NCBI RefSeq assembly: GCF_003334815.1
Contig: NZ_QOWO01000082.1
Reading direction: 5' to 3' (one strand)
Length of the DNA: 3,437 nt
Source of the DNA: Escherichia coli
GTDB taxonomy: Bacteria > Pseudomonadota > Gammaproteobacteria > Enterobacterales > Enterobacteriaceae
The position numbers and the translations under genes are program-made. Under the pieces are notes generated by a model. That model searched no databases, was not told where the DNA came from, and saw nothing but the letters and a program-made list of their open reading frames with translations. Positions 2,000 through 3,428 of the stretch are shown here, one piece after another. The stretch's first letter is position 1. Each line of letters starts with the position of its first letter.

Positions 2000-2251
2000 A
2001 TGACCGGCTGGGAACTGCGAATCTGGCGAAAAAGCATGCTCTGGTCACGCGAAAAAGCGGCCAGAGAATTTGGCGTGACGCAGAGAACATGGCACGCCTG
2101 GGAAAATGCGGAACAGGTGGACGTCACCGTCTGGAGGACCACCCAGGCTCTTTCAGTCCGTGACCTGCTGCCTCACATGCAGGGGATGCGCAAGGCAGAT
2201 ATCATCAGGCGTCTGGAAAATGAACTGGGGGAAACGGCAGGGAATGTGTGA
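2000..2251 (+). CDS. XRE-family helix-turn-helix DNA-binding protein (83 aa), YiaG/HigA-antitoxin-like
   Basis: ATG 2000 preceded by AGGTG (1991-1995); stop TGA 2249-2251. The N-terminal segment GWELRIWRKSMLWSREKAAREFGVTQRTWHAWENAE matches the XRE-type HTH pattern (LS..ElA..lGVs..Tv..WE) seen in HigA/YiaG-like regulators. Confidence 0.75.
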   Translation: MTGWELRIWRKSMLWSREKAAREFGVTQRTWHAWENAEQVDVTVWRTTQALSVRDLLPHMQGMRKADIIRRLENELGETAGNV

Positions 2252-2262
2252 GCGTGATTCAC

Positions 2263-2283
2263 AGCCTGGCAGAATGCCAGGCT
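2263..2283. other. Hairpin (8-bp stem AGCCTGGC / GCCAGGCT, 5-nt loop) between the convergent HTH gene and the orphan small ORF
   Basis: Perfect inverted repeat overlapping the stop codon (TAG, 2284..2282) of the - strand small ORF. No U-tract, so it may be a transcript-stabilising stem or weak terminator. Confidence 0.3.
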
Positions 2284-2488
2284 ACTGCTCATCAGGAAAC
2301 AGCTTTTTCAGTTCTTCACCGGAAAGTCCCGTGACCTCCTGAATCCGTTCCGGCGGCCAGCCTATATCCCGCAGCCGGCAGGCTATTTCCCGCGCCACTT
2401 CAAGAGCCCCTTGTTTAAAACCTTGTTTAAAACCTTCTTTAAAACCCTCGTCGAAACCTTTCTGTATAAGACGTTCTGCAATCGTCAT
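2282..2488 (-). CDS. Orphan small protein (68 aa) paralogous to the C-terminal tail of Rpn nucleases (RpnS-like), with tetrapeptide repeats GFDE-GFKE-GFKQ-GFKQ
   Basis: Its first residues MTIAERL are identical to the internal segment MTIAERL of the upstream Rpn protein. The remainder follows the same pattern (KG...ALEvAreIA...g..pEqIqe.TGLS.EELKK). Nucleotide similarity around the ATG: 2470-2488 vs 2681-2699 is 17/19 identical. The SD is weak (GGAG ~13 nt upstream) and an intrinsic terminator lies just upstream, so expression is uncertain. Confidence 0.55.
   Translation of the reverse strand: MTIAERLIQKGFDEGFKEGFKQGFKQGALEVAREIACRLRDIGWPPERIQEVTGLSGEELKKLFPDEQ
2411..2458. repeat. In-frame 12-bp tandem repeat, 4 units (TTGTTTAAAACC x2, TTCTTTAAAACC, CTCGTCGAAACC), encoding the GFK(Q/E)/GFDE tetrapeptide repeats
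   Basis: Two identical adjacent 12-mers, a third with one mismatch and a fourth diverged, all in codon register on the - strand. A substrate for slipped-strand copy-number change without frameshift. Confidence 0.85.
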
Positions 2489-2549: not shown

Positions 2550-2699
2550 TCAGTGAATGACTTTTTTCAGTTCAGCTTCGGAAAGTCCGGTGGCCTGCTT
2601 AATCTGCTCAGGTGTCATCCCCATTTTCTGAAGCTGACGCGCAATGGCAAGGGCTTTTTCAAGCGCACCTTTCTGCTCAAGACGTTCTGCGATTGTCAT
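2550..2699 (-). CDS. Putative intragenic small protein (49 aa, RpnS-like) translated from an internal in-frame ATG of the Rpn gene
   Basis: Internal ATG at 2699..2697 in the rpn frame, preceded by GAGGAT (complement of 2706-2711) with 7-nt spacing. Product would be MTIAERLEQKGALEKALAIARQLQKMGMTPEQIKQATGLSEAELKKVIH. Consistent with reported intragenic antitoxins of Rpn nucleases (from memory). Confidence 0.45.
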   Translation of the reverse strand: MTIAERLEQKGALEKALAIARQLQKMGMTPEQIKQATGLSEAELKKVIH

Positions 2700-3428
2700 C
2701 AGTTTATCCTCATGCTGCGGCAGGCGCTCGGCCAGCGCCCGCATAAATTCCGGTGATACAGAGTCCCCTGCGTTAACGATGTAATGAATCAGAACACGCA
2801 CCTGCTCGTCTGAAATTTCCACCATGACCTGCGGGAGTTTGTCCAGCAGCTCCATCATGTCACGATGGCGGATATGCTTCATCAGCAGCGTCAGTGCGGC
2901 CATCCGGCGATGGTTCATGATTTCATTGTCATCAACGACAGTGATATCAACCAGCGGAAACGGCTTTGTGTATATTTTAGCCGCAAGTGACGGATTCTCA
3001 AAACAGTCCAGCCAGTTCATGCTGTACGGATACGGGCTGCGCTCACCATGATAGAACAGCACCGGAATCACCAGTGGCAACGTTTTGTGCTGCTCCAGAT
3101 GTCTCTGCATCGCCGCCACACTGTAACGTAACATGCGGAAAGGCATGTACAGATTTTCGGTGCTCTGGTGCTCGATGAGCGTATAAACATAGCCATCTTC
3201 ACCCCCGGTGGTTTTCACGCTCCAGAGGATATCGCTGGCGTACTGATGCAGGTCCGGCTCAACAAAGGTGGCGGGTTCCAGCTTCAGCGTGGACAGGTCG
3301 CACAACTGCCGGTACTCCGCCGGAAGATGCAGTTCCAGAAAATCTCTGGCGACGTCGGGATTCGCCAGGAACGACCGGAACGCGGCATCATGCGGCGTGG
3401 GCGTTGTGGTGTTTTTCTTCTTACTCAC
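2550..3428 (-). CDS. Rpn family recombination-promoting nuclease / YhgA-like putative transposase (PD-(D/E)xK nuclease), 292 aa
   Basis: N-terminus TPHDAAFRSFLANPDVARDFLELHLP and the core DILWSVKT...YVYTLIEHQS match the YhgA/Rpn family (Pfam Transposase_31-like) as I recall it. The C-terminal tail ...AERLEQKG...TGLSEAELKK is the typical Rpn tail. GTG start at 3428..3426 with GGAGG (complement of 3433-3437) 4 nt upstream. Gene is complete, but its promoter lies outside the window. Confidence 0.9.
   Translation of the reverse strand: MSKKKNTTTPTPHDAAFRSFLANPDVARDFLELHLPAEYRQLCDLSTLKLEPATFVEPDLHQYASDILWSVKTTGGEDGYVYTLIEHQSTENLYMPFRMLRYSVAAMQRHLEQHKTLPLVIPVLFYHGERSPYPYSMNWLDCFENPSLAAKIYTKPFPLVDITVVDDNEIMNHRRMAALTLLMKHIRHRDMMELLDKLPQVMVEISDEQVRVLIHYIVNAGDSVSPEFMRALAERLPQHEDKLMTIAERLEQKGALEKALAIARQLQKMGMTPEQIKQATGLSEAELKKVIH
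2706..2711 (-). promoter_or_regulatory. Internal Shine-Dalgarno (GAGGAT) inside the Rpn coding sequence, serving the internal ATG at 2699
   Basis: - strand reads GAGGATAAACTG-ATG; AGGA lies 7-8 nt upstream of the ATG, which is near-optimal spacing. Confidence 0.4.

Follow-up and report, generated by a model that had tools for sequence, protein, structure and literature searches.

A palindromic hairpin at a convergent gene junction of IncI-complex plasmids as a probable copy of the adjacent rpn terminator stem

We analyzed a window of 3,437 nucleotides, by which we mean the whole stretch of Escherichia coli DNA under study, in which a short hairpin (hairpin A) lies between two convergent genes. 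Hairpin A is very probably a diverged copy of the terminator stem of the adjacent rpn gene, duplicated together with an RpnS-type cassette. As a whole explanation of the site, we favor on balance a terminator stem from the rpn 3' cassette that acts at most as a 3'-end stabilizer. Three features make this junction look odd: a stop codon inside the stem, a missing U-tract, and the tight convergence of the two genes. All three would be by-products of the duplicated rpn 3' cassette and not a dedicated regulatory device. The hairpin is real but ordinary, a fresh example of feature kinds that are already known.

The plus-strand gene at the junction (2000-2251) is in the ORF list and is annotated as a helix-turn-helix (HTH) regulator. 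It encodes an XRE-like protein of 83 aa and stops with TGA at 2249-2251. Converging on it from the minus strand is a small ORF of 68 aa (2282-2488), whose TAG stop reads as CTA at 2282-2284 on the plus strand. The first-pass annotation had described a tight convergence with the stops 30 bp apart, and both sets of coordinates agree with this, leaving a 30-bp spacer at 2252-2281. Hairpin A occupies 2263-2283 and can form on both strands (AGCCTGGCA-GAA-TGCCAGGCT). Its arms, AGCCTGGCA at 2263-2271 and TGCCAGGCT at 2275-2283, make nine perfect pairs, six of them G-C, around a 3-nt loop. A perfect 8-bp stem overlapping the minus-strand stop had been reported earlier. We find the same inverted repeat; the earlier 8 bp are the 9-bp stem minus its A-T closing pair. 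The hairpin begins 11 nt past the plus-strand stop and overlaps the minus-strand TAG, the A and G of which are the first two bases of the stem on that strand. Folding the RNA of either strand gave structures dominated by hairpin A, at -18 kcal/mol (z -2.9) for 44 nt of plus-strand RNA and -22 kcal/mol (z -3.7) for 56 nt of minus-strand RNA. The stem itself has a dG of about -15 to -17 kcal/mol.

The sequences that follow the hairpin are ACUGCUCA on the plus strand and GUGAAUCA on the minus strand, and neither contains a U-tract, for which about 5 or more U within the 8 nt directly past the stem would be expected. The flank on the 5' side, GUGAUUCAC, taken together with ACUGCUCA on the 3' side, does not have the A-tract/U-tract arrangement of bidirectional terminators. 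A scan with promoter and terminator consensus sequences found no terminator-like site at 2263-2283. Searching the entire window against Rfam with permissive E-values gave no match at the junction; elsewhere there was only noise below threshold. Both 3' flanks and the terminator scan thus bear out the earlier view that the stem, having no U-tract, is not a canonical intrinsic terminator, and we infer that on neither strand does hairpin A act as a canonical Rho-independent terminator.

Next to the small ORF lies a minus-strand gene for an Rpn family PD-(D/E)XK nuclease (2550-3428, 292 aa), which is RpnA-like (NCBIfam RpnA model, E 5e-99). Genes of the rpn family also encode a shorter product, RpnS, from an internal start, and RpnS counteracts the full-length nuclease as its antitoxin (Zhong et al., PNAS 2023, PMC10400941). 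The RpnS-equivalent tail within the present gene (2550-2699, minus strand) opens at internal Met244, with its ATG at 2697-2699. The small ORF is located 61 nt downstream of the rpn stop (2550) on the same strand and is paralogous to the C-terminal 49 residues of the neighboring Rpn. BLASTP aligned its product with Rpn residues 244-290 at 46% identity (E 6e-12), beginning at the internal Met (MTIAERL). NCBIfam and PHROGs profiles matched the 68-aa ORF to the C-terminal ends of Rpn/transposase_31 models, and a Pfam search with this ORF gave nothing significant. We found 339 homologs, mostly stand-alone and 60-111 aa long. Within the small ORF, 12-bp tandem repeats (2409-2446, minus strand; CCTTGTTTAAAA on the plus strand) encode the 4-aa repeats GFK(E/Q). 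The number of these repeats varies between plasmids: relatives carry tails of 52, 56, 60, 64, and 68 aa, and match lengths range from 347 to 436 nt.

Hypervariability of 4-aa repeats in rpnS genes has been described, as have separate downstream rpnSs copies on chromosomes and plasmids (e.g., ypaA after rpnE) and the loss of rpnSs genes by deletion or fusion (PMC10400941). All of the sequence-level features of a stand-alone RpnS-type gene ("rpnSs") are present in the small ORF, which by these features is such a gene and putatively of the antitoxin type. The first-pass annotation had called it an orphan tail ORF. This label can be dropped, since the ORF belongs to the described class of stand-alone RpnS antitoxin-type genes (PMC10400941). 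Fusion of the two tails in R621a has produced a single full-length rpn gene that has the C-terminus of the small tail and ends directly at hairpin A. The event was a deletion between the tail copies, of the kind already described for rpnSs genes (PMC10400941), and the stem is not involved in it.

The rpn gene has an intrinsic terminator of its own, hairpin B, on the minus strand at 2512-2537 (stem, 2517-2537), consisting of AGCCCGGCA-AAA-TGCCGGGCU and a U-run. Read on the minus strand it is AGCCCGGCA-AAA-UGCCGGGCU with the U-run after it, and its fold has a z of -4.4. A T5-T7 tract follows hairpin B in 12 of 13 sampled plasmid loci, the remaining one (L014) having TTTGTGG; another locus, L016, carries a compensatory A-T to G-C change in this hairpin. 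When we aligned the minus strand of 2230-2500 with that of 2480-2710, the two were collinear from the internal ATG through the rpn terminator. The first 33 nt from the ATG are 85% identical between the cassettes, the center 60%, and the last 42 coding nt 79%. Past the hairpin, identity drops to 45%, which is background. Both copies have the motif CTGATGAG with the stem after it, and in the alignment of the small ORF with the rpn 3' end the copy at 2288-2295 (minus strand) appears as a relic of the ancestral stop context. Because the homology ends at the stem, the U-tract is missing from the hairpin A copy.

The stems of hairpins A and B are identical at 16 of 18 positions, and the two differences make up one compensatory pair, C-G to T-A. 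Given a coding divergence of 29%, the probability of two or fewer differences in 18 stem sites is 0.066, and the probability that two differences fall on complementary partners is about 0.02. Across the family of A and B hairpins, three pairs show double-sided changes, with a covariation of 0.208 versus 0.098 in shuffles, a value that 0 of 500 shuffles reached; the alignment consists of distinct variants and is a small, hand-picked, curated sample. The compensatory change between A and B is a single event, and gene conversion may have occurred between the copies. The two hairpins are alike in strand, in their geometry of 9 bp and a 3-nt loop, and in their position relative to the CTGATGAG stop context. 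They differ in that hairpin B has a U-run, lies 12 nt from the stop, and has the loop AAA, whereas hairpin A has no U-tract, overlaps the stop, and has the loop UUC on the minus strand.

The position of the stop codon inside the stem can be traced to a single nucleotide. The end of the small ORF and that of rpn show a 1-nt difference in an A-run (GAACTGAAAAAAG versus GAACTG-AAAAAG). Rpn stops at the first TGA; the small ORF is out of that frame, runs three sense codons further (..P D E Q), and stops at the TAG in the stem. A 1-nt frameshift thus extended the small ORF into the old terminator. Taken together, these comparisons suggest the following course of events. An ancestor plasmid would have duplicated in tandem an rpn segment reaching from just upstream of Met244 through the intrinsic terminator, and the downstream copy would have become the stand-alone 68-aa RpnS-type gene. 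The stem of the copy would have stayed intact through its one compensatory change, while its U-tract would have gone, the sequence beyond the stem now being the 3' flank of the convergent HTH gene. An indel of 1 nt near the end of the small ORF would then have put the ancestral TGA out of frame, leaving the TAG in the stem to end translation. The first-pass annotation had called the hairpin shared between the HTH gene and the tail ORF. The alignment does not support a structure built for this junction: the stem reads as a paralogous copy of the adjacent Rpn terminator stem that came with the duplicated tail cassette.

We scanned 100,044 species genomes for the motif AGCCYGGCA-N3-TGCCRGGCT and found at least 120 loci in many phyla. 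Of the 120 motif loci listed, 104 are complementary; a T-tract flanks most loci on one side or both. The motif is therefore a generic terminator-type stem, and for this reason the paralogy of A and B rests on their collinear flanks and not on the motif itself. The idea that the motif is a general mark of rpn 3' ends was rejected, as tblastn placed none of the 120 matches listed next to an Rpn tail. Hairpin A also falls outside two other classes of elements. It is not a REP-like repeat, there being two related copies only, both at the 3' ends of rpn tails; in other genomes the motif forms isolated terminator-like stems in unrelated phyla. With 21 nt at gene 3' ends, hairpin A also does not have the form of a single-stranded-DNA (ssDNA) promoter of the Frpo/ssi type, a large stem-loop of the transferred strand that restores -35/-10 boxes ahead of a leading-region operon.

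The HTH gene, called ygeA in some IncI records, was found in 3,696 plasmids by tblastn. Homologs with 46-48% identity occupy the same backbone position in two other oriT-proximal loci (L009 and L010), one of which is typed MOBP. There they sit after relaxase/mobilization genes, with MobC in L010, and are convergent with other cargo, an N6-methylase gene or a group II intron. Since these homologs face other cargo, the HTH gene seems to be part of the plasmid backbone, with the Rpn module as cargo next to it. We accordingly rejected the HTH protein as a dedicated partner of Rpn; a more distant homolog of the pOXA-48 type is, in addition, found in a different arrangement. Candidate operators for the HTH protein have the form AAGTGAA-N5-TTCACTT and lie at 1896-1920 and 1965-1985. 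A palindrome beside hairpin A, GTGATTCAC at 2254-2262, was considered as a pair of operator half-sites and discarded, because the spacing does not fit and the sequence differs from plasmid to plasmid (GTAATTCAC, GTGGTTCAC).

The window matches 2,092 plasmids in PLSDB, mostly conjugative MOBP/MPF_I plasmids of the IncI1/I-gamma/K/Z complex, with Escherichia, Salmonella, and Shigella as hosts. A length difference of 1.2 kb in some of these matches is an artifact: BLAST had joined a second copy of a repeated 330-nt element, and there is no insertion. In the closest records, the gene order is nikB-nikA, oriT, a MobC-like gene (plus strand), a DUF4942 gene (minus), the HTH gene (plus), the small ORF (minus), and the Rpn gene (minus). 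Beyond the Rpn gene come two small genes and then ardA, psiA, and psiB, all on the minus strand. The window is thus the oriT-proximal leading region of IncI1/K/Z plasmids, which is the first part to reach the recipient. In IncI1 plasmids, ssDNA promoters drive the genes of this region (PMC12672017). Since ardA and psiB are on the minus strand, this suggests that the plus strand of the window is the transferred one. With this polarity, rpn and the small ORF would be in the "early" orientation, and the HTH gene would be transcribable only from double-stranded DNA. The window also contains a separate candidate ssDNA promoter of the Frpo/ssi type, several hundred nucleotides long, at 1424-1900.

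The sole divergent homologous locus examined for the stem is L003, on an IncFIB Salmonella Infantis plasmid, which has the same order of HTH, small tail, and Rpn at about 70% DNA identity. The terminator of its Rpn gene is perfect (z -3.0). Behind the small tail, the stem has decayed (z +0.47) and a T-rich tract survives. Each lineage has thus lost a different half of the second terminator, the U-tract in IncI and the stem in L003, and this speaks against strong selection for an intrinsic terminator at this place. The small tail of L003 has the C-terminal LKKLF(A/P)D in common with the IncI small tail, and its center resembles the Rpn tail of L003 itself. Judged from sequence, this mosaic points to an old duplication with probable gene conversion later on. 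The converted tract stops about six codons short of the end of the small tail and not at the stem.

Within the IncI complex, we found three forms of hairpin A in 13 plasmid loci: the 9-bp stem, a form with an 8-bp stem and a 5-nt loop (A2271T), and a form with an extra C2277T. A2271T alters only the loop-closing pair (dG -16.6 versus -17.0). The extra C2277T, paired with A2271T in locus L008, makes an A-C mismatch in minus-strand RNA (dG -9.4) and a G-U pair in plus-strand RNA. A metagenome scan, anchored on the flanks with the 21 hairpin nucleotides left unconstrained, collected 114 contigs. The stem had 8 bp and a 5-nt loop in 86 of the 114 and 9 bp and a 3-nt loop in 21; C2277T was present in 6, on both backgrounds, and G2264T in 1. 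Changes that weaken the stem therefore occur in 7 of the 114 metagenomic copies (about 6%). In the hairpin, 3 of its 21 sites segregate, as do 5 of 20 sites in the flank next to it, so the stem is no better conserved than its surroundings. The same holds for the sequenced plasmids, in about 2,000 of which the junction is 95-100% identical and the flanks equally conserved. The signs of present-day selection on the stem of hairpin A are weak. The first-pass annotation had held that non-conservation of the stem in homologous loci would count against its reading. This applies in part: the stem has decayed in L003, and in the IncI complex it persists, kept no better than its flanks. In one plasmid, an IS100 element is inserted right at the edge of the stem.

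If hairpin A has a function today, it is at most that of a 3'-end stabilizer left over from a terminator, a role that sequence makes possible and that we put forward tentatively. The preference of the first-pass annotation for an RNA-stability or processing stem is compatible with the data, which do not single it out. Over the 80 nt that follow the stem, the C/G ratio is 2.2 on the minus strand and 1.6 on the plus strand, which correspond to the 99th and 92nd percentiles of all 80-nt windows. RNA downstream of the stem is thus C-rich and G-poor on both strands, that is, rut-like, which fits Rho loading. Since Rho prefers such RNA, the most plausible residual role is that of a barrier to 3'-to-5' exonucleases that fixes RNA 3' ends. 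The stem would block these exonucleases once transcription has ended in the C-rich antisense RNA beyond it, whether through Rho or by read-through termination. The rpn/rpnSs transcript would be served by this, and so would the HTH transcript, since the sequence is a palindrome. A terminating ribosome, by its footprint, would melt or block a hairpin that overlaps or lies near the stop codon. Folding of hairpin A would thus face competition from ribosomes that terminate at the two stops, one inside the stem and one next to it. We looked for transcript data on the junction in the early-conjugation transcriptome study of the IncI1 plasmid pESBL (PMC12672017), which gives none for this site.

The main rival to a stabilizer role is that the stem is a neutral relic, a leftover of the rpn terminator without present function that looks conserved only because the IncI complex diverged recently. 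The flanks that are as conserved as the junction speak for this, as do the segregating variants that weaken the stem (C2277T, G2264T, and the A2271T/C2277T pair of L008) and the absence of a U-tract from hairpin A. So does L003, where the stem decayed while the U-tract survived, a complementary decay of the two terminator halves. On the other side, the stem stayed perfect, with a compensatory change as its sole change, while the adjacent cassette diverged by about 30%, and the commonest variant, A2271T, touches only the loop-closing pair. We consider a complete lack of function somewhat less likely than a stabilizer role. A weak bidirectional terminator independent of a U-tract, stopping both convergent transcripts and antisense read-through, is unlikely. 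Hairpin A descends from a real terminator, its strong GC-rich stem sits exactly between the convergent genes, and in R621a it is the sole structure after the full-length rpn gene. However, there is neither an upstream A-tract nor a downstream U-tract on either strand, and terminating ribosomes at stops within or next to the stem would interfere. It is also quite unlikely that the palindrome is kept as a strand-symmetric 3'-end element insulating two expression regimes of the leading region from each other. If it were, rpn/rpnSs would be transcribed early from ssDNA promoters and the HTH gene only after second-strand synthesis. The stem would then set the antisense reach of each transcript and so tune the ratio of toxin to antitoxin after plasmid establishment. 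A recurrent C2277T, with its G-U pair kept only in HTH-sense RNA, would hint at selection on that strand.

The palindrome might instead act at the level of DNA, as a binding site for the HTH protein or Rpn, as a recombination boundary of the tail cassette, or as a hairpin in the transferred single strand. Its place in the leading region, with the plus strand as the presumptive transferred strand, would suit such an element, and the copies of the tail do recombine, as the R621a fusion and the gene-conversion mosaic of L003 indicate; the IS100 insertion at the stem edge can be counted here as well. Nevertheless, the palindrome is unrelated to the candidate HTH operators, the conversion tract of L003 stops short of the stem, and the R621a deletion lies between the tail copies. 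The ssDNA promoters of pESBL are large stem-loops (PMC12672017), and the candidate in the window measures several hundred nucleotides, not 21. The motif, moreover, is a generic terminator stem of many phyla, with no Rpn association among the matches listed. We therefore regard a DNA-level element as very unlikely. As for chance, only the generic nature of the motif speaks for it. In dinucleotide-shuffled versions of the window, the expected number of perfect hairpins with a stem of 9 bp or longer and a loop of 3-8 nt is 0.07 per window, against three observed; the chance of such a hairpin falling in the 30-bp spacer is of the order of 1e-3 or less. In addition, hairpin A is at a position homologous to that of hairpin B, with collinear flanks. 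The palindrome is almost certainly not a chance product.

On its own, this junction, common to about 2,000 sequenced plasmids of the IncI complex, matters little. A terminator stem copied with its rpn cassette, which is the origin we favor, has nonetheless left a natural near-identical pair in hairpins A and B, one without and one with a U-tract, that can be used to study a U-less terminator stem in vivo. Possibly more interesting than the hairpin is its setting, an Rpn toxin/antitoxin defense module with an extra copy of the antitoxin type, placed between ssDNA-promoter-like elements of the leading region.

Several known systems resemble this site in part. Bidirectional terminators of convergent genes are reportedly hairpins flanked by A- and U-tracts. 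Hairpin A is like these intrinsic terminators in that one palindromic hairpin occupies the short spacer separating two convergent genes, but hairpin A is without the A-tract and U-tract flanks that define them. Stem-loops without a U-tract are said to be found at the processed 3' ends of Rho-terminated E. coli transcripts. With these, hairpin A shares a stable GC-rich stem just past the stop, no U-tract, and C-rich, G-poor RNA downstream, a resemblance that is purely anatomical. The closest parallel to the cassette itself is rpnE-ypaA of E. coli K-12, where a small gene directly downstream of rpn is likewise paralogous to its C-terminal region from an internal Met. In K-12, however, duplication took in a unit that begins with the ribosome-binding site and directly adjoins the rpnE stop. 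The two copies have no terminator between them, and the sole hairpin comes after ypaA, whereas here each copy has its own stem. Since the K-12 unit was duplicated without a hairpin of its own, it is not a general rule that the hairpin travels with the cassette, and we rejected a terminator copy as a constant part of rpnSs duplications. The copying of the terminator stem together with the RpnS-type cassette is specific to the present lineage. In other respects, the small ORF is like the known stand-alone RpnS genes, with which it shares hypervariable 4-aa repeats and loss by fusion or deletion.

The junction between the convergent HTH gene (2000-2251, plus strand) and the small RpnS-type ORF (rpnSs, the small tail; 2282-2488, minus strand, 68 aa) was compared with related loci. 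In one homologous plasmid locus (L007, NZ_CP025855.1, about 46-2003), an IS100 element of the IS21 family interrupts the 30-bp spacer where it meets the stem of hairpin A (2263-2283). The insertion site corresponds to 2261-2265 of the window and is apparently flanked by a target duplication of 5 bp, ACAGC. The insertion parts the HTH gene from hairpin A, which remains with the small ORF. Plasmid R621a (NC_015965.1, 1633-2556) carries a single 307-aa Rpn with a C-terminus of the small-tail type, ending at hairpin A. This protein is a natural fusion, made by deletion between the two tail copies, and the event removed hairpin B, the Rpn terminator (stem at 2517-2537). We also found the same HTH, small-tail, and Rpn module outside the IncI complex, on an IncFIB plasmid (L003, CP052797.1, 2351-3871), where it adjoins an IS200/IS605 tnpB. 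The center of its small tail has been homogenized with the tail of its own Rpn (36 of 42 aa), with the last residues still of the small-tail type. This pattern makes the IncFIB small tail a gene-conversion mosaic.

The stem itself has a sole recurrent variant, C to T at 2277, seen in L008, L146, L184, and others. It occurs on the 9-bp and 8-bp forms of the stem alike and on different flank haplotypes; recurrent mutation or recombination may lie behind it. In RNA of the HTH sense the changed position still pairs, as G-U, but in RNA of the rpnSs sense it becomes an A-C mismatch.

Two further oriT-proximal loci, one typed MOBP (L009, 2501-2783) and one with a relaxase gene and no MOB type given (L010, 2501-3016), carry homologues of the HTH gene. 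Both homologues occupy the same place as in the window, after relaxase/mobilization genes (MobC in L010). Their convergent partners differ: one faces a gene for an N6 DNA methylase, the other a group II intron. The same position next to different convergent leading-region cargo suggests that the HTH gene is a conserved backbone regulator at the cargo-region boundary. Upstream of the gene in the window lie AAAAAGTGAAATTTCTTCACTTTTT (10 bp, 1896-1920) and AAAGTGAAGTTTTTTCACTTT (8 bp, 1965-1985), both perfect palindromes and related to each other. They belong to a direct repeat of about 35 nt on either side of a promoter-like stretch just 5′ of the gene, an arrangement partly kept in the IncFIB module. 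These palindromes are probably operators through which the HTH protein would regulate its own gene. Perfect 8-bp palindromes also occur at 74-92 and 485-503; the first listed, GGCAGGGCGCAGCCCTGCC, is in the nikA-proximal (oriT-side) non-coding region, and the second, GATGTGACAATGTCACATC, overlaps the MobC-like gene at its stop codon.

A GC-rich non-coding element occupies 1424-1900 (core about 1468-1799), upstream of the DUF4942 gene on the minus strand. Fold prediction gives a long imperfect hairpin as plus-strand DNA (dG −115 kcal/mol, z −6.8). A second copy, 82% identical, lies between ardA and the next gene in a related locus (L001, 8337-8665). At least 5,000 plasmids carry the element, with two to four copies in each. 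The core of the element shares about 77% identity with ssb-proximal sites in other, non-IncI-like plasmid records. The element resembles a leading-region promoter for single-stranded DNA of the Frpo/ssi type. The Rpn toxin/antitoxin-type defense gene and its extra antitoxin-type copy also sit in the leading region (window 2550-3428 with L001 7493-8665), and upstream of them are a 144-aa gene, an 88-aa gene, and a copy of the promoter-like element. Given this setting, the Rpn module may be transcribed early after transfer.

The single-stranded-DNA promoters of PMC12672017 provide the point of comparison for the candidate element at 1424-1900. Otherwise near-identical plasmids differ widely in how many 12-bp repeats the small RpnS-type ORF (at 2409-2446) and its homologues contain; the tails measure 52 to 68 aa in the sampled loci and 60 to 111 aa among homologues. 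This variation agrees with the reported hypervariability of 4-aa repeats in RpnS proteins.
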